Positions 15,648 to 39,690 of a stretch of 64,000 bases of DNA are shown here, one piece after another (position 1 is the first letter of the stretch; each line of letters begins with the position of its first letter). Made by a program: the position numbers and the translations under genes. The stretch is taken from sequence record PQ478073.1. One strand, written 5' to 3'. The DNA is from a phage. The notes below the pieces were generated by a model. It saw nothing but the letters and a program-made list of their open reading frames with translations. It was not told the origin of the DNA and searched no databases.

Positions 15648-15950
15648 ATGTTCAGTATAGATTTAATTAACAGTACTATCAAAATGTTGGCTGATTTGGT
15701 GAGACAATCCAATGGAACTTTATATCCATCAATGTATAAAATGTTTGACCGATACATCAAGGATTGTAACATATCATTATATGGACTTGCTGTTGATATA
15801 GACGATTACTATGGAATTAATACTTCATATAAAACAGGAATTTTAATTGGTATTAATATAAAGATGGGGTATTTACCTTATTACTGTATAGGATTACCAG
15901 ATAATACTTTTGTAGAATATCCAGCCAGTACTATTAAATTAAGAGGATAA
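15648..15950 (+). CDS. hypothetical protein
   Basis: ORF track. Confidence 0.55.
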   Translation: MFSIDLINSTIKMLADLVRQSNGTLYPSMYKMFDRYIKDCNISLYGLAVDIDDYYGINTSYKTGILIGINIKMGYLPYYCIGLPDNTFVEYPASTIKLRG

Positions 15951-15957
15951 AACTAAA

Positions 15958-16536
15958 ATGAATGTATTAGAATTAAGTACTAAGCTGATTAGTATGCGTA
16001 ATGAGTGGTACGATTGGTTTTATAATGGTACTGATATGGATTTTTCAAAATATCCATTTATGGAATCAGGATGTGATGCAAGATACCGCTGGTTGAGCAA
16101 AGATTGTTCTGGTTTACATATTCTAGTTGACGATAGTGGTCAGGGAATTATAAAAGATTTACTTCAAGTTGAACAACTCGTCCATGATAATTGGTGTGAT
16201 AACGATCCATACCTTGGAAATATGATTTATGTAAGTGAAGATGATTGCATATTCGTTATCCAGCGTCATGGTAATTCTATGTTTTATGTAGCAGATAGCA
16301 GTACTCCAGAAGGTGCAGCAGCCGATGGACTTATGCCTAAGATTGATATATTGGAATTTGGATTACCTGAGCACTTCCAGATTAGTACTTTATACGATAT
16401 TCCACCACTTGAGTTCTTTGAAGAATTTAAATTGTACTACAATGATCTTCAAAAATTGAGTACTGATCGACGCATTGAAATAACTGTTAAGTACATGGAC
16501 GGAACGAAATTAACTGATACGGGGATAGAATTTTGA
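15958..16536 (+). CDS. hypothetical protein, paralog family F (PEHFQISTLYDIPPLEFF)
   Basis: ORF track; shared motif. Confidence 0.65.
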   Translation: MNVLELSTKLISMRNEWYDWFYNGTDMDFSKYPFMESGCDARYRWLSKDCSGLHILVDDSGQGIIKDLLQVEQLVHDNWCDNDPYLGNMIYVSEDDCIFVIQRHGNSMFYVADSSTPEGAAADGLMPKIDILEFGLPEHFQISTLYDIPPLEFFEEFKLYYNDLQKLSTDRRIEITVKYMDGTKLTDTGIEF

Positions 16537-17222
16537 TTAAAGATTTAGATAGAATTTTATATGTACTAAGGGGTGTAATTACATTACATCCACAAATCAA
16601 TCGAATTGAAAGTACATTTCAGTTGGAGTCAAGAGAAACTCCATATTCACATATATCAAATGTAGTTGGTTCACTCAGTACTGAAGACTCGTCTTACGAT
16701 ATTTGTGTATGTGAAGTACAACCAAGTTCGGATCTTGGATTTGCTATTTTTGATAAAGATCAAAATCTCATTAGTATGTTTCAGTGCAATAATCCTTTTT
16801 GGAAAACATGCCTGTATCCAGAGTGGGCTATGCTTGATCCAACCAAGAGTACCATTAAAGTTTATGACTCTAAAAATGATGAAGTCGTTATTGATTTGGA
16901 TGAGTCAATGTCAGAGGAAGAACACTTTCAGCTAATGATGATGCGTGCTATGCCGGAATACAATGCAATGATTAACACTGTGCAATACATTAAGGATACC
17001 ATGCCAGCGTTGCGTACACATGAGTTTTGTCATCCGGTATTGTATGAACATCTAGATTTAGACTTCAGTACTATTAAATTTAAAGATAGTGTTAAAAAAT
17101 ATATTCAAGAGAATGTTAAATTTGATTTTATTAGTACTATGAACAATAATCCAAAAACTAATTTTAGGCATCAGTACAATGAATCTTTGTCTAATGGACG
17201 TGATACCAGTTGGTGGAAATAA
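16533..17222 (+). CDS. hypothetical protein, paralog family F-like (EEHFQLMMMRAMPEY)
   Basis: ORF track; ATGA coupling. Confidence 0.65.
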   Translation: MIKDLDRILYVLRGVITLHPQINRIESTFQLESRETPYSHISNVVGSLSTEDSSYDICVCEVQPSSDLGFAIFDKDQNLISMFQCNNPFWKTCLYPEWAMLDPTKSTIKVYDSKNDEVVIDLDESMSEEEHFQLMMMRAMPEYNAMINTVQYIKDTMPALRTHEFCHPVLYEHLDLDFSTIKFKDSVKKYIQENVKFDFISTMNNNPKTNFRHQYNESLSNGRDTSWWK

Positions 17223-17223
17223 T

Positions 17224-17487
17224 ATGAATATTCAAGATAGATTACAATTACTGTACACACTTGAACAGGCTGCTTATGATCTTGTTCGAAAAATCTCAGA
17301 TGAACTACCTAAAGGAACTAAAGTTCGTGTACGTGAGATGAATTATTTTTCTGGAGTAATTGAAGAACAAGTACTAACAGTGAATAAAGTAACATACTAT
17401 GAATCTGAGTTGTCTATTCAGTGTGAATCGGATGATGGATTAATATCATATTATGGAACTGATGTAGATATAGAGGTAATAAAATGA
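17224..17487 (+). CDS. hypothetical small protein
   Basis: track ORF from 17179; ATG at 17224 follows upstream stop. Confidence 0.5.
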   Translation: MNIQDRLQLLYTLEQAAYDLVRKISDELPKGTKVRVREMNYFSGVIEEQVLTVNKVTYYESELSIQCESDDGLISYYGTDVDIEVIK

Positions 17488-18626
17488 CCCTTTTACAAAT
17501 ATATGAAGATTTAATGCACTTATGTAATACAAACGATGCATTCTTTTATGTGGATCATAAAAGTCCTGCTGGTGGCACGTATCGTGTATTCAGTTATCGT
17601 CTAGCATCATACACTGATTTCATGCAACCAAATGCGTTGGAAACCCGTGGCTCTATGTGGGAAATTGATGAAGAAGGTGAAATGATACGTTGTGCAGCAC
17701 GTACAATGAAAAAGTTCTTCAATGCTTACGAGAATCCTGCTACAATGTTCCCTGCTAACACCACATGCGATGACATTGCGGTAGTGATGCCTAAGTTGGA
17801 TGGTTCGATTATCAGTACTTACCGTGATAATGATGGTGAGATTCGTTGTAAATCACATACTGCATTGTATTCTGACCATGCGATTAACAGTACTCGACTT
17901 ATTAACGAGAACCAGAATTTGTATCAGTACATCGACGAAGCGGAACGTTTAGGTTACACAGTTAATATGGAGTATACAAGCCCAGAGTACCGAATTGTAT
18001 TACCATATCAGGTAGAACAACTGTTTGTACTGAACGTTCGTCATCGTGTGAGTGGTGAGTTGCTATGTGGTAAAGCACTACGTGATAAGTTTCCATGTCT
18101 TGCACAGTACAGTACTAATATGACTGGAAAAGATATTCATCACACTTTTCCGGTACGAAATACCTTCCGTGAAAGCGTGGAGGAAGTTCATAAAATGCTT
18201 GATATTGAGGGTTTTGTGTGCATCCTAAATAATGGGACAATGTGTAAAATAAAGACTGACTGGTACAGTTCATTACATCTTACAAAAGATAGTATTATTA
18301 TTGATTCTCATTTATATGAAGCAGTATTAAATGGTTCAAGTGATGATTTAAAACAATTGTTCAGTACTGATGAATATGCTATGCAAAAGATATTAAGAAT
18401 GGAACAATTGGTATTTTCGTGCTATAATGCATTACAAGATGAAGTAGAAAGCTTCGTCAAGGAACACAAGCACTTGGAGCGAAAGGAATTCGCAATGAAG
18501 GTTCAGGAGTGTTTAACTAATGAACTGAATCGTCAGGGCTTGGCCTTTGCAATGTATAACAATAAGAAAGTTGATTACAAAGAGACTCTTATAAAATACA
18601 TGAAAATTGTACTAAAGGATTTTTAG
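17484..18626 (+). CDS. rnlA: RNA ligase 1 (T4 RnlA type)
   Basis: KLDGS nucleotidyl-lysine motif; N-terminal region aligns by eye with T4 Rnl1; ATGA coupling. Confidence 0.85.
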   Translation: MTLLQIYEDLMHLCNTNDAFFYVDHKSPAGGTYRVFSYRLASYTDFMQPNALETRGSMWEIDEEGEMIRCAARTMKKFFNAYENPATMFPANTTCDDIAVVMPKLDGSIISTYRDNDGEIRCKSHTALYSDHAINSTRLINENQNLYQYIDEAERLGYTVNMEYTSPEYRIVLPYQVEQLFVLNVRHRVSGELLCGKALRDKFPCLAQYSTNMTGKDIHHTFPVRNTFRESVEEVHKMLDIEGFVCILNNGTMCKIKTDWYSSLHLTKDSIIIDSHLYEAVLNGSSDDLKQLFSTDEYAMQKILRMEQLVFSCYNALQDEVESFVKEHKHLERKEFAMKVQECLTNELNRQGLAFAMYNNKKVDYKETLIKYMKIVLKDF

Positions 18627-18656
18627 TACTATCTAGCCTAAGCACAAGGAGAAGTG

Positions 18657-18911
18657 ATGGCTAAACCTAAGTATAAAAATGACGGTTCCCTTTCTCCGAC
18701 TGAGTTCAGGAAAATACAAGAAGAAATCGATGAATTACAGCACAAACGCTCAATGAAAGGTGTGAAGATAAGTAAGAAACGAATCGAGAATACCTTCGGA
18801 TGTAGTAGTACTGAATACAAGAAGAAAAGGAAACCAAAAGGTGTTAAGCCGAGAATACATGATGTAACTCGCTATACATCGAAACGTGAAAATAAATTTG
18901 ATCCACTATAA
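18657..18911 (+). CDS. small highly basic protein
   Basis: ORF track; AAGGAG RBS; Lys/Arg-rich. Confidence 0.55.
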   Translation: MAKPKYKNDGSLSPTEFRKIQEEIDELQHKRSMKGVKISKKRIENTFGCSSTEYKKKRKPKGVKPRIHDVTRYTSKRENKFDPL

Positions 18912-18920
18912 GGAGTTCAT

Positions 18921-19151
18921 ATGAAAGTTGAAGTTCAGCATAGTATTGTTCAGGATATGTCAGTAGTTAAATTTCTTTCTCTGAAAGATTACTTCAGATG
19001 TATCAAGTTCCTAGAAGAATCTCAATTACAGTGGACCCCATTAAAGTACAGTTCATCCAATGATACTGCTAGTATTCGTTGTGATGAATCTGTACTTGTG
19101 AAAATCTCCAAGCGATTTGGAGTAGGAAAAGTTAATGAGCACAGTAAGTGA
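18921..19151 (+). CDS. hypothetical protein
   Basis: ORF track; AAGGAG RBS. Confidence 0.5.
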   Translation: MKVEVQHSIVQDMSVVKFLSLKDYFRCIKFLEESQLQWTPLKYSSSNDTASIRCDESVLVKISKRFGVGKVNEHSK

Positions 19152-19389
19152 CCTAAAATACTACAACAAAACTGCGGATACGTTTATTACTCATTTATAT
19201 GAAGAATTTAGTCGTATCCGTGAGGAATATACAGGTAAATGTATTTTATATAGTTCTTATCATAGTGGTGGAATTGAAAGTGCTTACATTACTAAAGTGA
19301 AGTTTTCTGATGACTATCAATTACTCTTTGAATTAGATGATTGTTTCGTTATTGAAGCTTGTTTGATAGTGGATGTTCTAGATAATTGA
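19135..19389 (+). CDS. hypothetical protein
   Basis: ORF track. Confidence 0.5.
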   Translation: MSTVSDLKYYNKTADTFITHLYEEFSRIREEYTGKCILYSSYHSGGIESAYITKVKFSDDYQLLFELDDCFVIEACLIVDVLDN

Positions 19390-19395
19390 GGACAT

Positions 19396-19710
19396 ATGAA
19401 TAAAGAACTTGCATTTGAGAGGATCGAAAAGTTAAAGTACATTGAAAAGGAACTAATAGAATCTGTCGAATCAATGGTCGAAGATTACGTTTTCGATTTT
19501 AAGAAAACATTGATTGGATGTAAAGTTAAATGCTGGGATCATACAATCAGAGAATGGTTCAGTACTATAATTCTTGATGTTAAAGTATCGCGTACTGCTA
19601 TTGGTAATTTAGTAAATGGTGAATGCTTTGTATACACTGAATACAATAACGGAACAAGAAACCTTTCAAGAGGATGGCACAAACTCGAAGATGTAGAATT
19701 CATTGAGTAA
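19396..19710 (+). CDS. hypothetical protein
   Basis: ORF track; GAGGA RBS. Confidence 0.55.
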   Translation: MNKELAFERIEKLKYIEKELIESVESMVEDYVFDFKKTLIGCKVKCWDHTIREWFSTIILDVKVSRTAIGNLVNGECFVYTEYNNGTRNLSRGWHKLEDVEFIE

Positions 19711-19722
19711 CAAGGAGTAATA

Positions 19723-20655
19723 ATGCCAACTATTACACTAACAGTTGGATTACCTGGGTGTGGTAAAACCACATGGGCAGTTCAAGAAATTAAAAATGCC
19801 AAATCCAAGACTATCAACATCAACCGTGATGATATTCGTGAATCTATGGCTGGGTCACATGATGCTTACAAATTCAACGATGCTAATGAGCAGTACGTAA
19901 CTAATTTACAGTTCAGTGCAGCAAATTCAGCAGCAGAGAATGGTTGGAACATCATCATATCCGATACAAACCTTAAACAACATTTCCGTAATCTCTGGAA
20001 AGTATGGGCTAAAGATAATGGTTATGATTACAAAGAAAAGAACTTCTATGATGATTTTGTACCTAATGAAGACCGTGGTGCAGATGTTCATGAATTCTTT
20101 AAGATTAAAGAGTTCGTAAAACTTTGTAAGAAATATAACCTCCAGCGTGAGCGTTCAGTACAAGATGATATCATTGACACAATGGCAGATACGTACTATT
20201 ATAGTAAGGCATTGCACATTGGTTACTATGGTAATTCACGAGAAGCTGCTGTTATCGTTGATATTGACGGTACTCTTGCTCATAAATGGGGTCGTAATCC
20301 TTACGATGAAAGTACTGTTCTTCAGGATACACCTGATGAAGAAGTTATTTTGTCTATTATCGCTGAAGCAGTTTTTCATAAACGCAAGATTATCGTCATG
20401 AGTGGGCGTACTGAAGGGTGTCGTGCTGATACCGAACAGTGGCTTAAGAATTGGGGTGTTCCTTACGATGCATTGTTTATGCGAGATATCGATGATAAAC
20501 GTCCTGATGATGTTGTAAAATTCGACCTGTACATGAAAAATGTGGTTGATCATTACGATGTTAAAAAGGTATATGATGACCGAGCACAAGTCGTATTCAT
20601 GTGGCGTAAGCTACTTGGCTTGAAAGTTTTTCAAGTTGCAGAAGGAAATTTCTAA
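19723..20655 (+). CDS. pnk: polynucleotide 5'-kinase / 3'-phosphatase (T4 Pnk type)
   Basis: Walker A GLPGCGKTT; HAD-phosphatase motif DIDGTL; ends QVAEGNF like T4 Pnk. Confidence 0.88.
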   Translation: MPTITLTVGLPGCGKTTWAVQEIKNAKSKTININRDDIRESMAGSHDAYKFNDANEQYVTNLQFSAANSAAENGWNIIISDTNLKQHFRNLWKVWAKDNGYDYKEKNFYDDFVPNEDRGADVHEFFKIKEFVKLCKKYNLQRERSVQDDIIDTMADTYYYSKALHIGYYGNSREAAVIVDIDGTLAHKWGRNPYDESTVLQDTPDEEVILSIIAEAVFHKRKIIVMSGRTEGCRADTEQWLKNWGVPYDALFMRDIDDKRPDDVVKFDLYMKNVVDHYDVKKVYDDRAQVVFMWRKLLGLKVFQVAEGNF

Positions 20656-20660
20656 TACAA

Positions 20661-20690
20661 AAGGGATCATATGTTGGTCCCTTTTTCTTT
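20661..20690 (+). terminator. rho-independent terminator
   Basis: stem AGGGA/TCCCT then T-run. Confidence 0.55.
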
Positions 20691-20704
20691 TAAGGAATAT
20701 TATA

Positions 20705-23836: not shown

Positions 23837-24087
23837 TGTTCAACACTGACTTATCACATCTGCGATATCTTATGTCTTTGGCTGATGATTTTATAAATGA
23901 TCTGAAGCCAAAATATATTGGTCAAGAAGTACGATTAATAAACTCCAGAGGGTATGGAAAGTATATTATTACTGATATGTATATTAGTGGTGGTGAATGG
24001 CGTTTTAAAATTAATACTTATCTTAAAGATGGTTCTTTTGCTGGAACACAAGTTACTAAACACACTAATATTATATGGTTGGAGTAA
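23836..24087 (+). CDS. hypothetical small protein, loose family B
   Basis: ORF track. Confidence 0.55.
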   Translation: MFNTDLSHLRYLMSLADDFINDLKPKYIGQEVRLINSRGYGKYIITDMYISGGEWRFKINTYLKDGSFAGTQVTKHTNIIWLE

Positions 24088-24089
24088 TA

Positions 24090-24833
24090 ATGAAACACTT
24101 CTTAGAAGTAACCGTACCTGATGATAAAGATTTATACATTGTAGGTGATTTGCATGGTAATGGTAAACTATGGGATGCTACAGTGAAAGAATTTGGTATT
24201 ACACACAATGATTATGTTTTCAGTGTAGGTGATATTATCGACCGTGGAGAACAAAATTCAAAGCTCCTTTTTGAATTTTTGTTCGGAGAAAATCGTTACA
24301 TGATTGCGGGTAATCATGAGATGATGTGCGTTGATTCGGAAACACTTCGAGATTGGTATCATTGTTGGATAAGTAATGGTGGTGATAAATTCCTTGATGA
24401 AGTTGGAGGAACAGGCATTCAATTCTTTCGTCAGTACTTAAAGGATCTCCCTATGATTATCCAAATCAATCACCGAGGATTGAAGATTGGGTTAGTTCAT
24501 GCTGGAGTTCCGTTGGAATATACAACATGGGAACGATTTGTTAATGGGACAAAATCACTTAGTGCTGATATAATTGATAAGTGCTTGTGGGATAGAAAAA
24601 CATTCGATTATTGTAGAACTAATAATACATATTATGCACCTAAGTTAGATGGAGTGCATTGTGTCTTTAGTGGACATACAGCAGTTACAGATCCACTAAT
24701 TTACGGTAATCGCATTTGGATTGATAGTCAGTTCTTGACGGGTGACTTAACTCTCGCTACTCCACAAAGTGGTGGAATGAGATACTTACGTAAAGAAAAA
24801 GATGAGTACTCATTCAATCGTTTCAAAAGGTAA
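24090..24833 (+). CDS. Ser/Thr protein phosphatase (PPP-family metallophosphatase)
   Basis: GDLHG, GDIIDRG, GNHE motifs; GGAG RBS before ATG at 24090. Confidence 0.8.
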   Translation: MKHFLEVTVPDDKDLYIVGDLHGNGKLWDATVKEFGITHNDYVFSVGDIIDRGEQNSKLLFEFLFGENRYMIAGNHEMMCVDSETLRDWYHCWISNGGDKFLDEVGGTGIQFFRQYLKDLPMIIQINHRGLKIGLVHAGVPLEYTTWERFVNGTKSLSADIIDKCLWDRKTFDYCRTNNTYYAPKLDGVHCVFSGHTAVTDPLIYGNRIWIDSQFLTGDLTLATPQSGGMRYLRKEKDEYSFNRFKR

Positions 24834-25118: not shown

Positions 25119-25346
25119 ATGAAAGTAATTCAAGTTATGGTAGAAAAATACCAAACTGAAGATGGTCGTATTTTTGATTCAGCTAAACAAGCTGAACACC
25201 ATGAACGTATTATTTCGGGTGCACGTAAAGTATGTCCTACATGTAATGGAACACAACAAGTACCGTCAGAAGATTACCGCAGCTTTTATGCTTGTCCACA
25301 CTGTGATGGGAAAGGCTACGTAGAAAAACAAGAGGTATGGAAATGA
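25119..25346 (+). CDS. small zinc-ribbon protein (CPTC ... CPHC)
   Basis: ORF track; two CxxC pairs. Confidence 0.55.
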   Translation: MKVIQVMVEKYQTEDGRIFDSAKQAEHHERIISGARKVCPTCNGTQQVPSEDYRSFYACPHCDGKGYVEKQEVWK

Positions 25347-25756
25347 AATTGTATTGTTTAACTAATATGTACTGCCAAGGTGTCCAAGCTGGTATTCAAG
25401 CATTCCATGCTGGTGTTAAACTAATTAAAGAATATGAAGGTACTGCTTTCAGTACTATTATTGATGAATGGTACTATGAACACGAAACTATTGTAGTACT
25501 AAATGCTGGTGGACATGATAAGTTAAATTTTTATTATAACAACCTTAGCAAACAGGGAAAAGTTCCGTTTGCCAAATTCAATGAAGCTGGATTGAATGAT
25601 GCTATTACCTGTGTAGCAGTACTGTGTACGTCTGAAATGATTGAAGACATGGCTGTTATGCGTATGAATCTTCCTGCTGGTGATCAACTAATGCAAGTAA
25701 AATATGGTGCATTGTTTGACACATTAAAAGCAATCAGCACAATGAGGACTATTTGA
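25343..25756 (+). CDS. hypothetical protein
   Basis: ORF track; ATGA coupling. Confidence 0.55.
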   Translation: MKLYCLTNMYCQGVQAGIQAFHAGVKLIKEYEGTAFSTIIDEWYYEHETIVVLNAGGHDKLNFYYNNLSKQGKVPFAKFNEAGLNDAITCVAVLCTSEMIEDMAVMRMNLPAGDQLMQVKYGALFDTLKAISTMRTI

Positions 25757-28404: not shown

Positions 28405-29196
28405 ATGAAATTTGTTGTAACGTCTGACGTACACGGTGGTACTGATTACCTCCATAGTGGTGATTACAGTGATACAGTACTGATTATTGCTGGGGACTTC
28501 GATGAAGTTAAACGCAGTCGTTACCGTACTGGTATAGAATCACTATGTAAGCAGTTTAAGAATGTAGTACTGGTTCCTGGCAATCATGAATATTATGGTT
28601 CCAATATCCACAAAACGCATAAAGTACTGTCCGATATGCAAGATGAGATTCCTAATTTCATCTTTTTGCAAAACAAATTTGTATGGCTGGATGGAGTACT
28701 GCTTGTTGGTAGTACTCTGTGGACAGACTTCGATAAAGGTAATTCTTTGACGAAGTTTGATGCTCGTCAGAAGATGAACGATTACAAACATATCCGTCAT
28801 GGAACAACATCAGAGCCTTGGCGTAAGAAACTGACACCAGATGATACTGAGTTTATGCATCACAAAGATAAACAATTTATCAAAAATTCTATTGACACAG
28901 TTCGCTTTATGCATGATAATGATTTCAAGGTCATCGTGGTTACCCATCACGCACCAAGTTATCAAAGTGTTTCACCAAAATATAAAAATGATTCACTGAA
29001 TGGTTGTTACTGTTCCGATATGGATCAGTACATTGAAGATTTGGGTGCTGATGTTTGGATTCATGGTCATGTTCATAGTAGCTTTGACTACCACATTGGT
29101 AAGACACGTATCATTTGTAATCCACGAGGCTATGAATCATACAGTGGAGCTTGTGAGAATTTTGATTACAATCCTAAATTTGTATTTGAAATTTAA
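28405..29196 (+). CDS. calcineurin-like metallophosphoesterase
   Basis: DVHGG, AGDFD, GNHEYYG motifs; AGGAGG RBS. Confidence 0.75.
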   Translation: MKFVVTSDVHGGTDYLHSGDYSDTVLIIAGDFDEVKRSRYRTGIESLCKQFKNVVLVPGNHEYYGSNIHKTHKVLSDMQDEIPNFIFLQNKFVWLDGVLLVGSTLWTDFDKGNSLTKFDARQKMNDYKHIRHGTTSEPWRKKLTPDDTEFMHHKDKQFIKNSIDTVRFMHDNDFKVIVVTHHAPSYQSVSPKYKNDSLNGCYCSDMDQYIEDLGADVWIHGHVHSSFDYHIGKTRIICNPRGYESYSGACENFDYNPKFVFEI

Positions 29197-34116: not shown

Positions 34117-34725
34117 ATGAAAAGACTATGGCTTGAGGTAGTACAAGCAGTAATGCTTCTGATGTTGATAAATTTTCCAGCCAGTGCTGGTGTTGAAAGT
34201 AAAAATGTGATAAAGTACAATCCTGAAACACGTAATGTATATTTCATCTCAGATATTACGGATGGGTCACTAAAGCGTATGATGGAGTTGTATGATAAAG
34301 AACACTATGATACCATTACCATCACATCGCCAGGTGGTGATTTTGATGCTGGGATTAAAATGGCAAACTTCGTTAGAGACAATGGTATAAATTTAATTGT
34401 TTCTAGGTATTGCAACTCAGCATGTACTGTGGTATTCTTCAGTGTAGCTTTTGAAAAGCGATACATGATAAATCGCTCAGTACTGGGACTTCATAACATT
34501 TCTATTAAAAGTAATGTTAAAGACGGTGATAATTCTTTTGTATCAGTTAGGCAGCTATCAACTTTTACTGAAGAAATGGCAACTAAAGTAGGTTTTCTAT
34601 TTACACTATATTCTGCAAATGGAATTCCACCAGACGTTCTATATAAAGTTAGCCGTTCGCGTGGTGAAGATGTTGTAATATTAACAAAACCAGAACTGGT
34701 TTTTTACGGTTCAGTCAAACAATAA
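34117..34725 (+). CDS. signal-peptide ClpP-fold serine protease-like protein
   Basis: N-terminal signal-like segment; ITITSPGGDFDAG and NSAC/GLHN resemble ClpP core. Confidence 0.55.
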   Translation: MKRLWLEVVQAVMLLMLINFPASAGVESKNVIKYNPETRNVYFISDITDGSLKRMMELYDKEHYDTITITSPGGDFDAGIKMANFVRDNGINLIVSRYCNSACTVVFFSVAFEKRYMINRSVLGLHNISIKSNVKDGDNSFVSVRQLSTFTEEMATKVGFLFTLYSANGIPPDVLYKVSRSRGEDVVILTKPELVFYGSVKQ

Positions 34726-34795: not shown

Positions 34796-35056
34796 ATGAC
34801 AAACATCCAAAATTTGACATCTATTATTTTTTATGCTACAGTAGTGATGTATATTACTGTACTTTTCCTAACAGTTTTCATTTACAAAGATTACAAAAAT
34901 GGCTTTATTGATAACACAACAATGAAGTTCAATTCAAAGTTTGAAGCAATAATTTATTATGTTCTGGCAACATCATATTTGGTGTGTCTAATGTTATTAG
35001 GTACATTGATTTATATTTTATATACAACTTTATTTGCAATTGGAGCTATTTTATGA
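34796..35056 (+). CDS. small membrane protein
   Basis: ORF track; two hydrophobic segments. Confidence 0.5.
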   Translation: MTNIQNLTSIIFYATVVMYITVLFLTVFIYKDYKNGFIDNTTMKFNSKFEAIIYYVLATSYLVCLMLLGTLIYILYTTLFAIGAIL

Positions 35057-35649
35057 CATGTATCATTGCACACACTGATGGTGTAACTTCTTTTATTGCA
35101 GGGGACAAACTGGGAAGTAACGGGTTCACAAAGTCCGTTCAAACTGAGCCTAAAGTATTTGAGAAAGAATTCATTAAAATCAATGATGATGCTGGTTTGA
35201 CCCGTACAAAAGAAATTATGGCGATTGGTTACACCACATCATTCCGTATGGGTCAACTTCTTACTTACAGTTTGAATCTACCACAGCAAGATGCAAATGA
35301 GACGTTTCCACAGTACTTAGTACTGAAAGTTATTCCTATTATTCGTCAAATGTTCAAAGAGGAATGGGGTTCTCGTGATCCTTCACAAGAAGTAGGTGGT
35401 GGACAGTTCATCATTCTTCACAATCATACAATTTATGAAGTTCAAGAAGATTTTTCAGTTCTTCAACCGAAAACACGAATCACCGCCGTAGGTAGCGGAA
35501 CATATCATGCTATTGCAGCAATGCAAGCATATATTGAAGTTGAAAATGAATCAAAAGTGCCACTACATGAACGCATCAAATCAATTTTTAAAATTGTCAG
35601 TGATAATGTAACTAGTGTAAGTGCCGAGTTTGATGTTTTAAAGTATTAA
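35053..35649 (+). CDS. HslV / proteasome beta-subunit-like hydrolase
   Basis: Thr after initiator Met; IAGDKLGSNG and TAVGSGTYHAIAA parallel HslV; GGAG RBS before ATG at 35053. Confidence 0.6.
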   Translation: MTCIIAHTDGVTSFIAGDKLGSNGFTKSVQTEPKVFEKEFIKINDDAGLTRTKEIMAIGYTTSFRMGQLLTYSLNLPQQDANETFPQYLVLKVIPIIRQMFKEEWGSRDPSQEVGGGQFIILHNHTIYEVQEDFSVLQPKTRITAVGSGTYHAIAAMQAYIEVENESKVPLHERIKSIFKIVSDNVTSVSAEFDVLKY

Positions 35650-35871: not shown

Positions 35872-36624
35872 ATGATATCAGAAAAATTTATAAGTAATGA
35901 AGGTAAAAAAAGATTACTGATTATATCTGGTGCAGGACTTTCTGTTGAAAGTGGTATGGAACCTTTTCGATTTGATGATGGTTTGTGGGATACATTTAAA
36001 ATCAATGATGTATGTAACATTGCTAGTTTAACTACGAAATATCACGTTGTTCATTCCTTCTATAATACATTACGTGTAAAATTGGGACAATGCGAACCCA
36101 ATGCAATGCATTATTTTATAAAATCGTTAGAAGATCAATATGGTGATTGCTTCCTTCATATGACTTCTAACATGGATGATCTTTATACTCGTATCGGTGG
36201 TCATGAGCTTAAACTTCATGGAAACTTGTGCGAAGTTATTGAAAATTATAGTATCAATTCCGATGATTATAATGTTATTAACTGCGGATACGAACCATAC
36301 ATACCAAAACATGATGTTTTTGCTAAACCAAATGTAGTAATGATTGGAGAATATCATCGTTATGTTGATGGTATTCGCTTACCAATTTACGAAGAACGAA
36401 ATAATGTGTTGAAATCTCTTAATGAAAATGATACAGTTATTGTAATTGGTAGTAGCGATACAGTACTAGTATGGTCGAGATTAGCAGCAGCATTACCATG
36501 TTATAGTGTTAATGTTAACATTCGTAAAAATGATAATGATTTTTTGTTTAATGAAAAAGTTATCAAGCCAGCAACCAAAGCAATACCACATCTAGAGACT
36601 ATAATTAAGGAACGTATGAAATGA
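35872..36624 (+). CDS. Sir2-family (sirtuin-like) NAD-dependent enzyme
   Basis: GAGLSVESGMEPFR NAD-binding motif; HG catalytic pair; GSS near C-terminus; AAGGA RBS. Confidence 0.75.
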   Translation: MISEKFISNEGKKRLLIISGAGLSVESGMEPFRFDDGLWDTFKINDVCNIASLTTKYHVVHSFYNTLRVKLGQCEPNAMHYFIKSLEDQYGDCFLHMTSNMDDLYTRIGGHELKLHGNLCEVIENYSINSDDYNVINCGYEPYIPKHDVFAKPNVVMIGEYHRYVDGIRLPIYEERNNVLKSLNENDTVIVIGSSDTVLVWSRLAAALPCYSVNVNIRKNDNDFLFNEKVIKPATKAIPHLETIIKERMK

Positions 36625-37172
36625 GTGTTAAAGAAGTTCCCTTTGGTGAATATGGCTCACGTGCAAATTTTGTATTTTGTTATTTCTTTGCAAGAAAATG
36701 TAACCCTTACAAAAACTATGAGTTGAATGATATACCAGAAGTAAATTTAGTTTTACTACAATTACGATGGGATGGTCTTCTTGGTGGATGTGGTGGAACC
36801 GTAGAAAGTACTGATATCTCACTAGAAGATGCGTTGCGTCGTGAAGTTCAAGAAGAAATGGATTACAATATTTTTGTTTCCCATCTTCGACCACTCAAAA
36901 CTTTTGAAATTTACCCAGGTGCAAACAGTCATAGTTTTAGCTATGAAGTAAGCTATGACGAGTTGAAACACATTAGAGATGGATACACTAATGCTAAACA
37001 TGCGAGTGCTGAAGTTGCTGGTGTAAATTTATGTCATATTTCTCGTTATTCTAAGGGACAAAATCGAGAAGCGGGATATAATAATCTTATGACACAGAAC
37101 TTCATTGGTACAGCAAAACAAGAATTGGAGTATCTGGTTCAAAAAGAAAACTTACTAATTAGTTATCTATAG
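36621..37172 (+). CDS. Nudix hydrolase
   Basis: Nudix box GGCGGTVESTDISLEDALRREVQEE; ATGA coupling to Sir2 gene. Confidence 0.7.
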   Translation: MSVKEVPFGEYGSRANFVFCYFFARKCNPYKNYELNDIPEVNLVLLQLRWDGLLGGCGGTVESTDISLEDALRREVQEEMDYNIFVSHLRPLKTFEIYPGANSHSFSYEVSYDELKHIRDGYTNAKHASAEVAGVNLCHISRYSKGQNREAGYNNLMTQNFIGTAKQELEYLVQKENLLISYL

Positions 37173-37181
37173 GAGTTTAAC

Positions 37182-37502
37182 ATGTCTTACGCAATGTTTT
37201 TGGATGATATTCGTGATGCAAATCTATATTATCCAAACCAAGATATGGTGGTATGTCGTGACTTTAAAAGTGCATGTGAATATGTTATTGAAAATGGAAT
37301 TCCAGCATTTGTATCATTCGACCATGACTTGGGTGATGTGAGCGAAGACGAAAAGACTGGATATTCTTTTGCTAAGTTTCTTATTGATTATATGTTTGAT
37401 AATAATATTAAAGAACCGTTTGAGTACTTTGTTCACAGTAGTAATCCTGTTGGTAAAATTAATATTGAAACATACTTAAACAATGGATTTAACGCATTAT
37501 GA
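37182..37502 (+). CDS. hypothetical protein
   Basis: ORF track; GGAG RBS. Confidence 0.55.
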   Translation: MSYAMFLDDIRDANLYYPNQDMVVCRDFKSACEYVIENGIPAFVSFDHDLGDVSEDEKTGYSFAKFLIDYMFDNNIKEPFEYFVHSSNPVGKINIETYLNNGFNAL

Positions 37503-37801
37503 TTCAAACACACATCAAAAGTCTTATTTGTACTGTTCTGTTAGGTGCAGGAGTTCTTTGGTTCGGACAGTATCACGAGAACACTAAGCGTACCAACATT
37601 CACTACAATACCGCAGAAGTTGTTAGTTTAGGACAATGTAGCGAGTCCAAATGTTCATTCATGTATAAAACCCAAAGTGGTGAAGTACGTAATGGACTAT
37701 CAAGAGAACCAGTTTCAATTGGTCAACTTGTTTACCAGGAGTGCTGGGAAGAAAAGGTTCGAGGTTCACGTTGCTATGTTGAATACGAACCAAATATGTA
37801 A
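37499..37801 (+). CDS. membrane-anchored hypothetical protein
   Basis: ORF track; N-terminal hydrophobic segment. Confidence 0.5.
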   Translation: MIQTHIKSLICTVLLGAGVLWFGQYHENTKRTNIHYNTAEVVSLGQCSESKCSFMYKTQSGEVRNGLSREPVSIGQLVYQECWEEKVRGSRCYVEYEPNM

Positions 37802-37861: not shown

Positions 37862-39301
37862 ATGAAAAAATATACAATTGACACAAACGTACTACTATCT
37901 GACCCTAATGCATCTATTGCTTTTGATGGTGCTGCAATCATTCTACCATTTACAGTACTGGAAGAATTAGATTCGATTAAGAGTCGTAATGTAGATGTTT
38001 CACGCGATGCTCGTGTTGCTATTCGTAACATTGAAGCAATTATTGCAGATGCATCACATGACGAGATTAGTAGTACTGGTGTTAATATTGCTGATGTTCA
38101 TACCAATATGAATCCTGATAGCAAATTGTTTGTTATTACAAACGAAGAAGCTGAGGCACTAATTCGTACTAAAGGTACAGAAGAGAAAGTTCAAACCCTT
38201 CTCAAAAGTACTGTACCTGATGATAAAATCATTCTGGTAGCTTTAGCAACAGAATCAGTACTGGTAACTCGTGATATCAACATGCGTATCAAAGCACTAA
38301 GTTATGGTGTCGAGGTACAAGATTATCGCCATGATATTGTTATTGGTGATAGTGATTTGATTCACATTGGTCAACACCATCTGGAAATCAATTTTTGGGA
38401 AGTATACAGCAACTTAACCAATACTAATATTCAATCCGAACAAGTTGGTCGTCGTTTGTATCATTACATTTCTAAAAGCTTGATTGAACATCTGCTTCCA
38501 CAAAATCTATGCATCGGTGATTATCTATATGATGATGCTGACGTATTATTTGTGTACGAAGGACAATCAGCAATTGAGGAAGATGATGGAACACTAACAC
38601 CAGAAGATATTTTGGTATTCCAAGACATTGGACAATCAGTGGCTTTACGTGCTAAAGTATGGGATATTAAAGCAAAGAATATCCAACAAGCACTCGCCAT
38701 CAACAGTATTCTCGATCCTGATGTACATCTAACAGTACTACTAGGTTCTGCTGGTACTGGTAAAACACTAATTACAATTGCTACTGCATTAGAATTAGTA
38801 CTGGAAAAACGTAAATACGACCGAATCATCTTCTCTAAAACTCAAGACTCACAGTTTGAAGATATTGGTTTCTTGCCAGGTTCAGAAGCAGAAAAAGTGA
38901 TTCCATTCTGTGGAGCCGCGATTGATGCGTTAGAGTTTCTTCATAAAGATGATGCAAACCCACAAGGTAGTATTGAAGAGATTATGAAACGTAATGTTAT
39001 TCAATTTAAAGCACTAAACTTTGTACGTGGACGTTCATTCACCAACACTATTCTAGTAGTTGATGAATTCCAAAACATTACACCTGCACAAGCAAAAACC
39101 ATCTTGACACGAGCAGGGTTAAACTGTAAAGTAGTAATTATGGGTAACTTGAGTCAGATTGACAGTAAGTTTATTAGTCCTGTTAACAGTGGTTTGACAT
39201 ATGTAACTGAGAAGTTTAAAGACTGGGCAGGTTGTCGTGTCATCGAACTAGAAGGTGTTGTTCGTTCACCACTGGCTGAATTTGCTGAAGAAAATATGTA
39301 A
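37862..39301 (+). CDS. phoH: PhoH-family ATPase with N-terminal PIN domain
   Basis: Walker A LLGSAGTGKT; PIN-like acidic N-terminus (DTN ... EELD). Confidence 0.85.
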   Translation: MKKYTIDTNVLLSDPNASIAFDGAAIILPFTVLEELDSIKSRNVDVSRDARVAIRNIEAIIADASHDEISSTGVNIADVHTNMNPDSKLFVITNEEAEALIRTKGTEEKVQTLLKSTVPDDKIILVALATESVLVTRDINMRIKALSYGVEVQDYRHDIVIGDSDLIHIGQHHLEINFWEVYSNLTNTNIQSEQVGRRLYHYISKSLIEHLLPQNLCIGDYLYDDADVLFVYEGQSAIEEDDGTLTPEDILVFQDIGQSVALRAKVWDIKAKNIQQALAINSILDPDVHLTVLLGSAGTGKTLITIATALELVLEKRKYDRIIFSKTQDSQFEDIGFLPGSEAEKVIPFCGAAIDALEFLHKDDANPQGSIEEIMKRNVIQFKALNFVRGRSFTNTILVVDEFQNITPAQAKTILTRAGLNCKVVIMGNLSQIDSKFISPVNSGLTYVTEKFKDWAGCRVIELEGVVRSPLAEFAEENM

Positions 39302-39558: not shown

Positions 39559-39663
39559 TTCATTTGAAGCAATATTGTGGAGTTCTTAATAAATACTTTT
39601 ATAAGAATAATAATACTTTTTATTAAATTAAAAAGAACTCCATGTGTTATTTCAGTTTTTCGT

Positions 39664-39690
39664 CCCTGTCTTTTGGCAGGGATTTTTTAT
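39664..39690 (+). terminator. rho-independent terminator
   Basis: stem CCCTG/CAGGG then ATTTTTTAT. Confidence 0.65.

Follow-up and report, generated by a model that had tools for sequence, protein, structure and literature searches.

The window analyzed here is a stretch of 64,000 nucleotides of phage DNA (record PQ478073.1), and our subject is a run of five genes within it that opens with a Sir2-family gene and a Nudix hydrolase gene. Over the 5.4-kb cassette region, the sequence has 99.6% nucleotide identity with Escherichia phage 121Q (NC_025447, Asteriusvirus, 348.5 kb) and 95% identity with a series of related Escherichia coli and Salmonella jumbo phages. Genes of the window are named by 121Q numbering (gp476–gp480), and statements about the 121Q locus refer to the 64-kb window. 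The original prediction, made from the sequence alone, had described a Sir2 gene whose stop overlaps the start of a Nudix gene, followed by an open reading frame (ORF) of 106 amino acids (aa). These ORFs and their coordinates were confirmed, and the cassette as a whole comprises the following genes:

35872..36624, + strand: gp476, Sir2-family protein, 250 aa (PF02146, 73.1 bits against a cut-off of 24; PHROG 2162, E = 2e-77)
36621..37172, + strand: gp477, NUDT16-type Nudix hydrolase, 183 aa (PF22327 Nudt16-like, 68 bits against a cut-off of 27; PF00293 NUDIX, 30 bits)
37182..37502, + strand: gp478, protein with a cyclic-phosphate processing receiver-like (cREC) domain, 106 aa (PF20274 cREC_REC, 80 bits, E = 2e-22)
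37499..37801, + strand: gp479, small membrane protein, 100 aa (PHROG 14661, E = 4e-44)
37862..39301, + strand: gp480, PIN + PhoH fusion (PhoH2-like RNA helicase/nuclease), 479 aa (PIN_4, E = 8e-20; PhoH, E = 7e-44)

RefSeq labels these genes 'Sir2 (NAD-dependent deacetylase)' (gp476), 'nudix hydrolase' (gp477), 'hypothetical protein' (gp478), 'membrane protein' (gp479), and 'PhoH-like' (gp480). The gp476 gene starts at an ATG with AAGGA ahead of it, and its TGA stop (36622-36624) overlaps the gp477 ATG (36621-36623) as ATGA. A second ATGA overlap joins the gp478 stop to the gp479 start. Four-base overlaps of this kind are routine in the genome: of the 61 adjacent gene pairs that the RefSeq table of 121Q lists for the 28 kb upstream, 8 have this four-base overlap and 26 overlap in some form. 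The Sir2/Nudix overlap is no special signal and is not diagnostic. The GC fraction is ~0.33 over the whole window, and base composition shows no local anomaly that would point to recent acquisition.

The NAD-binding and catalytic residues of gp476 are present (G20-A21-G22-L23-S24, F32-R33, N100, D102, and H116-G117), with G20, G22, N100, D102, H116, and G117 invariant in 25 homologues. The intact NAD-binding motif and catalytic His noted in the original prediction were therefore confirmed by alignment. An AlphaFold model of gp476 based on 25 homologues had a mean predicted local distance difference test score (pLDDT) of 89.8. When this model was searched with Foldseek, E. coli CobB was the first match (E = 6e-16), with a template modeling score of 0.75 when query-normalised and up to 0.83 when target-normalised. 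The top 50 matches in the Protein Data Bank (PDB) were sirtuins throughout, CobB being followed by other sirtuin deacylases only. By sequence, the best solved relatives are likewise CobB (phmmer E = 3e-22) and then archaeal Sir2 and SIRT5.

We aligned gp476 with CobB and with the Sir2 proteins of eight other phage lineages. It shares its NAD pocket, N/D pair, and catalytic His with CobB and the class III sirtuin SIRT5. Of the class III Y-x-x-R motif, Y64 is kept and aligns with Y92 of the CobB acyl pocket, whereas at the CobB R95 column the jumbo clade has Leu, followed immediately by Arg; the T5-, rV5-, and KVP40-type proteins have Arg at the R95 column itself. The small domain is remodelled, and none of 17 phage Sir2 sequences has Cys at the columns of CobB C155, C174, C176, and C177, which form the zinc module. 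The phage proteins also carry signatures with no CobB counterpart: VCNI (VATP in CobB), H-x-FYN, NVDD, and GY. Consistent with these differences, gp476 scores 98–114 bits against T5-, rV5-, and KVP40-type phage Sir2 proteins versus 82 bits against CobB, and it reaches 93 bits against a CobB equivalog model with a cut-off of 318 (NF001755) and 85 bits against another with a cut-off of 320 (prot_deacyl_CobB). No PADLOC family for defence-type Sir2 proteins (ThsA, DSR, Sir2-HerA, partners of short prokaryotic Argonautes) matched gp476 at E <= 0.01, and no defence-type Sir2 structure was among its top Foldseek matches. Together, the residues, signatures, and scores place gp476 within the sirtuin superfamily as a member of a phage-specific clade near class III. 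Judged by sequence, it is not a CobB equivalog, and it is not a NADase of the defence type. In P0013, a metagenomic orthologue that is 63% identical, GNG replaces GAG and the FR loop is lost while the remainder is conserved; this protein may be an inactivated Sir2 copy.

These comparisons bear directly on the possibility that gp476 is a CobB-like NAD-dependent protein lysine deacylase that resets host or phage acylation, with the Nudix protein, together with cREC, disposing of O-acyl-ADP-ribose. Such a role would agree with the sequence and fold matches to CobB and SIRT5-class sirtuins, with the full set of catalytic residues including Y64, and with the RefSeq and PHROGs annotation of gp476 as a deacetylase. 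It is harder to reconcile with a score far below the equivalog cut-off, with the replacement of R95 and the phage-specific motifs, and with the missing cysteines of the zinc module that shapes the peptide cleft. It would also leave unexplained the RNA ligase, kinase, HAD_SAK, and cREC genes that recur beside this clade, described below. We consider a deacylase role unlikely.

The best PDB matches of gp477 are Xenopus X29 and human NUDT16 (E = 3e-12 to 1e-11). The residues R74, E75, E78, E79, and E131 do not vary among 22 phage sequences and align with human NUDT16 R75, E76, E79, E80, and E136. The original prediction had credited this protein with a canonical Nudix box, a description that has to be corrected: gp477 lacks the canonical spacing (G-x5-E-x7-REUxEExGU) and instead reads G-x5-E-x11-RE-x2-EE, with the 11-residue spacer seen in NUDT16/X29 rather than the canonical 7, and with Asp for the terminal Gly in 121Q. 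It shares with the NUDT16 and X29 decapping enzymes the Pfam family, the extended box spacing, the catalytic Glu triad, and the distal Glu. In contrast, identity to these enzymes is low, the phage Nudix protein has an N-terminal extension of its own with a conserved C-x-PY motif, and G56 of gp477 aligns with human NUDT16 F57, which lies beside the Nudix box. This Phe presumably has a role in base stacking.

Human NUDT16 strips the ADP-ribose that TRPT1 adds to phosphorylated RNA ends, and it can cleave ADP-ribose on both protein and RNA (PMC6582358). Such activity would suit a writer–eraser pair, in which Sir2 ADP-ribosylates a host or phage protein or nucleic acid and the Nudix protein trims the mark to phosphoribose, as Macro does in SirTM-Macro. 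Some sirtuins are ADP-ribosyltransferases and sirtuin–Macro pairs are known (PMC9503650), and the Sir2 and Nudix genes are adjacent and translationally coupled. The SirTM operons resemble the present locus in pairing a sirtuin with an ADP-ribose-acting enzyme; they differ in that the 121Q partner is Nudix plus cREC, not Macro, and in that the phage sirtuins form a separate clade (PMC9503650). This explanation moreover gives no role to cREC, the obligate partner of the Nudix protein, and has to accommodate both the lack of similarity between gp476 and defence or toxin Sir2 models and the more than 900 phage records that carry the Sir2 clade without Nudix. We regard it as improbable.

The 106-aa protein gp478, left as unknown in the original prediction, is identified by its profile match as a cREC protein. 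D8, D9, D47, H48, D49, S86, and N88 of this domain are invariant in 45 sequences and present in gp478, which also has the expected receiver-like Rossmannoid fold. cREC is predicted to be a cyclic-phosphate phosphoesterase. The domain was named in a jumbo-phage survey from the Aravind laboratory (PMC7824862) and occurs in as many as 18% of jumbo phages (PMC9503650). In the literature, we found it discussed only in that survey and its 2022 successor, with no experimental study.

The two remaining proteins are a small membrane protein and an RNA-associated fusion. gp479, which sits between cREC and PIN-PhoH2, has a single N-terminal hydrophobic helix and four Cys residues and matched no Pfam family. 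gp480 comprises a PIN_4 domain (residues 4-156) and a PhoH domain (residues 269-473), and its translation contains the acidic PIN residues, a Walker A motif (GSAGTGKT), and a Walker B motif (VVDEF). Its best NCBIfam match, 'RNA 5'-3' helicase PhoH2', scored 152 bits, below the equivalog cut-off of 680. Profile and structure comparison of the kind called for in the original prediction thus matched sirtuin, Nudt16-like, and cREC profiles and, by Foldseek, a sirtuin fold, and careful alignment revealed no loss of catalytic residues in Sir2, Nudix, or cREC. The genes are real and, to judge from their conserved residues, look functional.

Conservation of the arrangement was examined in 69 Sir2 loci from IMG/VR, scanned with profiles built here. 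Sir2, Nudix, cREC, the membrane protein, and PIN-PhoH2 occur in the same order in all 16 Rak2-like loci, among them those of 121Q, RaK2, Serratia BF, GAP32, CBB, and Yersinia fHe-Yen9-04, even as Sir2 identity falls to 41%. The stretch from Sir2 to PIN-PhoH2 is a five-gene conserved cassette of Rak2-like jumbo phages. In 10 of these loci, Nudix and cREC form one 302-aa polypeptide. The fusion is carried by Serratia BF, GAP32, CBB, and Yersinia and Erwinia phages, while the genes are separate in 121Q. One subgroup has an ORF of 122-123 aa between Sir2 and Nudix (L012 8750-9118, L014 8750-9115, L015, and L016) for which no Pfam match was found; this insertion breaks the start/stop coupling of 121Q in that subgroup. 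The cREC gene is intact in L014.

The gp477 family has a narrow distribution. Among phage records, it was found in 71 Rak2-like jumbo phages and, by weak matches, in 4 Aeromonas phages (75 records in total); it was also found in 12 IMG/VR loci, all Rak2-like. The neighbourhood of the single Aeromonas phage match examined for Nudix was uninformative, and a pattern scan of one genome per species recovered no relatives in bacteria or archaea. The Sir2–Nudix pairing is limited to one phage lineage. This restriction, together with the largely syntenic flanking genes, the insertion that parts Sir2 from Nudix, and the routine nature of ATGA overlaps, could mean that Sir2 and Nudix-cREC are independent accessory genes that are neighbours through regional synteny and have no functional coupling. 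However, the block from Sir2 to PhoH2 is unbroken in 16 of 16 loci although the zone just upstream gains and loses genes freely, and Sir2 and cREC are linked in unrelated rV5-like phages too. We give little weight to chance neighbourhood as an explanation.

Homologues of the gp476 clade were found in 975 of 50,697 phage records, and their neighbourhoods repeatedly contain genes for RNA healing and sealing. In rV5-like phages, an Rnl1-type RNA ligase, cREC, and Sir2 occur in that order; upstream of this run, genes for a polynucleotide kinase and a phosphoesterase are oriented divergently, and tRNA genes are nearby. The rV5 ligase, kinase, cREC, and Sir2 correspond one-to-one with the ligase, kinase, cyclic phosphodiesterase, and Tpt1 steps of the fungal system (PMC10946426). 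A 145-kb Klebsiella phage has the order RNA ligase, cREC, P-loop kinase, small ORF, and Sir2. In T5-like phages, Sir2 is followed by HAD_SAK_2, a 'Swiss Army Knife' RNA-repair phosphatase, and PhoH lies a few genes upstream on the opposite strand. Two tandem DUF7415-repeat genes follow the Sir2/HAD_SAK_2 pair in the T5-like phage SSP1 (L005 7309-8136), and proteins of matching sizes (142 and ~130 aa) occupy this position in nearly all sampled T5-like loci.

A similar association emerged when 80 cREC loci from IMG/VR were scanned with profiles built here. Among 47 dereplicated non-jumbo groups, cREC neighbours included a calcineurin-like phosphoesterase in 8, Rnl1 in 5, a P-loop kinase in 4, and PhoH in 4; Pnkp was near cREC in 5 of 71 loci scanned. 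In the bacterium Malaciobacter, a cREC gene directly follows a Metallophos gene. Not every Sir2 neighbourhood is of this type. In other metagenomic phages, Sir2 adjoins NadV or directly follows a cytidylyltransferase-fold gene, as in a 340-kb metagenomic phage contig where that gene (L068 7395-7988) is immediately ahead of Sir2. Nicotinamide mononucleotide (NMN) adenylyltransferases belong to the cytidylyltransferase fold. Several further Sir2 neighbours in metagenomic phages had no Pfam match, and the KVP40 and phAPEC8 Sir2 loci contained no recognisable partner gene.

The window itself also encodes RNA-repair candidates at some remove from the cassette:

17484..18626, + strand: T4 Rnl1-type RNA ligase (PF09511 and PF20819; RNA ligase in the 121Q annotation), not adjacent to the cassette
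19723..20655, + strand: T4 Pnkp-type polynucleotide kinase/phosphatase (PF25109 HAD_PNKP, E = 1.5e-43; AAA_33 kinase domain), not adjacent to the cassette
24075-24833, 25337-25756, and 28405-29196: two calcineurin-like phosphoesterases and a weak PTH2-like (peptidyl-tRNA hydrolase) match

By their family assignments, these genes constitute a dispersed RNA-repair toolkit, and Rnl1 and Pnkp are possible partners of the cassette in RNA repair. At window positions ~15900-20700, upstream of the cassette, coordinates are offset by 10 bases relative to NC_025447; with the identity of 99.6%, this suggests that the window may derive from an isolate nearly identical to 121Q and not from the reference record itself. 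T4 Pnkp-Rnl1 tRNA repair offers a parallel in that the 121Q window encodes both enzymes and their homologues adjoin cREC and the Sir2 clade in other phages. It differs in that the T4 route needs no NAD+ and leaves no 2'-phosphate.

The flanks of the cassette are broadly syntenic across the Rak2-like group, and the zone directly upstream of Sir2 is variable. In most relatives, this zone contains NatV and NadV, a small membrane protein, and proteins of 173, 148, and 72 aa, the last of them Cys-rich. NadV and NatV lie three or more genes upstream of Sir2 in sister jumbo phages, often with the 173-aa protein between them (L003 1842-5008; L013 3756-7411; L017 3812-7005). The 148-aa gene, located zero to two genes upstream of Sir2, matched Pfam Acb1 (PF23474, E = 3.6e-15) and, more weakly, the 2H superfamily. 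It is found at 7311-7754 in L017, the Serratia phage BF locus, and has homologues in L003, L012, L014, L016, and L018-L026; homologues were counted in 13 of 16 jumbo loci. Acb1 has been established by experiment as a nuclease that counters the cyclic oligonucleotide-based antiphage signaling system (CBASS) (PMC9117128). On the strength of the profile match, the '2H' partner in these relatives, previously read as an RNA-repair enzyme (PMC9503650), is a member of the Acb1 anti-CBASS family.

In 121Q, protease-fold genes stand at the position where relatives have the NAD-salvage and Acb1 genes:

34117-34725 and 35053-35649, upstream of Sir2: ClpP-like and HslV-like protease-fold genes

The neighbours reported in the original prediction were thus found as described: the ClpP-like and HslV-like genes precede Sir2, and PhoH, here the PIN+PhoH fusion, lies downstream. 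Read from its RefSeq start, the HslV-like protein opens with Met-Thr, which fits an N-terminal Thr nucleophile. NadV, NatV, and any homologue of the 148-aa gene are absent from the 121Q window. A NadV search returned every other Rak2-like genus at 50-56% identity, with no Asteriusvirus among the matches of at least 50%.

This upstream zone is most relevant to a counter-defence role, in which Nudix-cREC would degrade immune signals derived from ADP-ribose or containing cyclic phosphates (Thoeris-type cyclic ADP-ribose, cyclic oligonucleotides, or their products) while Sir2 modulates NAD+ or the precursors of the signals. Neutralisation of nucleotide-based immune signals had been suggested in the original prediction. 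The Acb1-family gene and NadV/NatV upstream of Sir2 in sister jumbo phages lend it some support, as do the NadV and NMN adenylyltransferase-fold genes that adjoin other phage Sir2 genes, and it has been argued that phage Nudix and cREC proteins mostly counter soluble ADP-ribose derivatives (PMC9503650). The suggestion fares less well in 121Q, whose window has none of the three genes. An NAD-consuming Sir2 would be an odd choice for a phage that is countering NAD depletion. Enzymes of the NUDT16 family are known to act on RNA ends and macromolecular ADP-ribose rather than cyclic ADP-ribose, and we found no literature tying Nudix or cREC to anti-Thoeris activity. A simpler reading suggested by the Acb1 and NAD-salvage neighbours is that NAD consumers and NAD suppliers cluster together. 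We consider counter-defence quite unlikely.

The best-supported model for the cassette, which we hold tentatively and at somewhat less than an even chance, is that it acts on damaged RNA ends and spends NAD+ to process them. RNA is favored over free NAD/ADP-ribose metabolism or immune signals because of the Rnl1, cREC, kinase, and HAD_SAK neighbours of the clade, the NUDT16-type Nudix protein, and PIN-PhoH2. The NAD/ADP-ribose processing module of the original prediction survives in part: an NAD-consuming Sir2 does lie beside enzymes able to take apart ADP-ribose-type products, with catalytic residues intact in all three proteins, but the genomic context points more to RNA. In this model, cleavage of RNA by host ribotoxins would generate ends with a 2',3'-cyclic phosphate. 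These would be opened to a 2'-phosphate by a cyclic phosphodiesterase, perhaps cREC, and an RNA ligase would seal the break. Sir2 could then act as an ADP-ribosyltransferase on the leftover RNA phosphate, in the manner of Tpt1/KptA. cREC would open the resulting cyclic phosphate, and the NUDT16-type Nudix protein would cut the ADP-ribose pyrophosphate to adenosine monophosphate and a phosphoribose remnant, so that a potentially toxic by-product is cleared and salvageable nucleotides are returned. PIN-PhoH2 may unwind or trim the RNA substrate. What the sequences show directly are the domain assignments, the conserved active-site residues, the Nudix-cREC fusion, the shared gene order, and the repeated association of this Sir2 clade and of cREC with RNA-healing and RNA-sealing genes in independent phage lineages; we infer the substrates, the order of the steps, and the roles of the membrane protein and PhoH2.

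The proposed chemistry matches that of Tpt1/KptA in that NAD+ would be consumed, nicotinamide released, and an ADP-ribose cyclic phosphate by-product left for disposal. The folds are nevertheless unrelated (sirtuin Rossmann versus ADP-ribosyltransferase), such that only a functional analogy is proposed for the phage Sir2, and cREC plus Nudix would stand in for 2H plus Macro enzymes. In its fullest form, the model would make the phage Sir2 the first RNA-acting enzyme of the sirtuin fold and a non-orthologous replacement of Tpt1/KptA that takes off RNA terminal or 2'-phosphates or marks them with ADP-ribose, with cREC as a new receiver-fold cyclic phosphodiesterase and the Nudix protein completing clearance; we regard this version as possible but rather doubtful.

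Several observations weigh against a role in RNA-end processing. By sequence and fold, the nearest match of gp476 is the protein deacylase CobB, and none of the catalytic residues of a deacylase is missing; no sirtuin is known to act on RNA. The T4-type Pnkp/Rnl1 route of 121Q leaves no 2'-phosphate, so it is not obvious why a Tpt1-like step would be needed. Since the Sir2–Nudix pairing occurs in one lineage only, it represents one evolutionary event within a generally syntenic region. The '2H' partner once read as an RNA-repair enzyme belongs instead to the Acb1 anti-CBASS family and stands beside NAD-salvage genes. Finally, PIN nucleases, to our knowledge, produce no cyclic phosphate ends.

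An RNA-acting phage sirtuin was already predicted in 2022. Iyer, Burroughs, Anantharaman, and Aravind (Viruses 2022, PMC9503650) described this neighbourhood, with Serratia phage BF as the example, and proposed that the sirtuin, acting like KptA, takes 2'-phosphates off repaired RNA. To its partners they assigned either the opening of the cyclic phosphate or the processing of the by-product, ADP-ribose cyclic phosphate. We re-derived their three neighbourhood types independently from raw sequence. The locus studied here agrees with their type-1 neighbourhood in phage group, Sir2 clade, and Nudix, cREC, and PIN-domain partners; Serratia BF corresponds to L017, and the linked PIN-domain endoRNase to gp480, two genes downstream. 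It differs in that Nudix and cREC are unfused in 121Q and the 2H phosphoesterase gene is missing from the window. No experiments on phage sirtuins, on cREC, or on anti-Thoeris activity of Nudix proteins came up in our literature search.

With respect to expression, the sole strong terminator-like hairpin of the region (39662-39683; 9-bp stem and T run) lies past a small gene downstream of PhoH2, a position consistent with one long transcription unit through the cassette. A promoter scan was uninformative in this AT-rich DNA, with 43 promoter-like sites compared to 35 +/- 6 in shuffled sequences, and scanning the window or region for tRNAs and Rfam families gave no matches.

The novelty of the locus is low, as its genes were already annotated and their arrangement had been published as a computational prediction. 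What the present analysis adds is the assignment of the '2H' partner in relatives to the Acb1 family, the finding that NAD-salvage genes flank the cassette in sister genera and not in 121Q, and the confinement of the Sir2–Nudix pairing to a single lineage. Interest is nonetheless moderate because the predicted chemistry, an RNA-acting sirtuin and a receiver-fold phosphodiesterase, would be notable if confirmed. If the model is true, RNA would join the substrate range of sirtuins, the cREC domain would gain a first activity, and large phages would be seen to repair ribotoxin-cut RNA while recycling the NAD+ spent.

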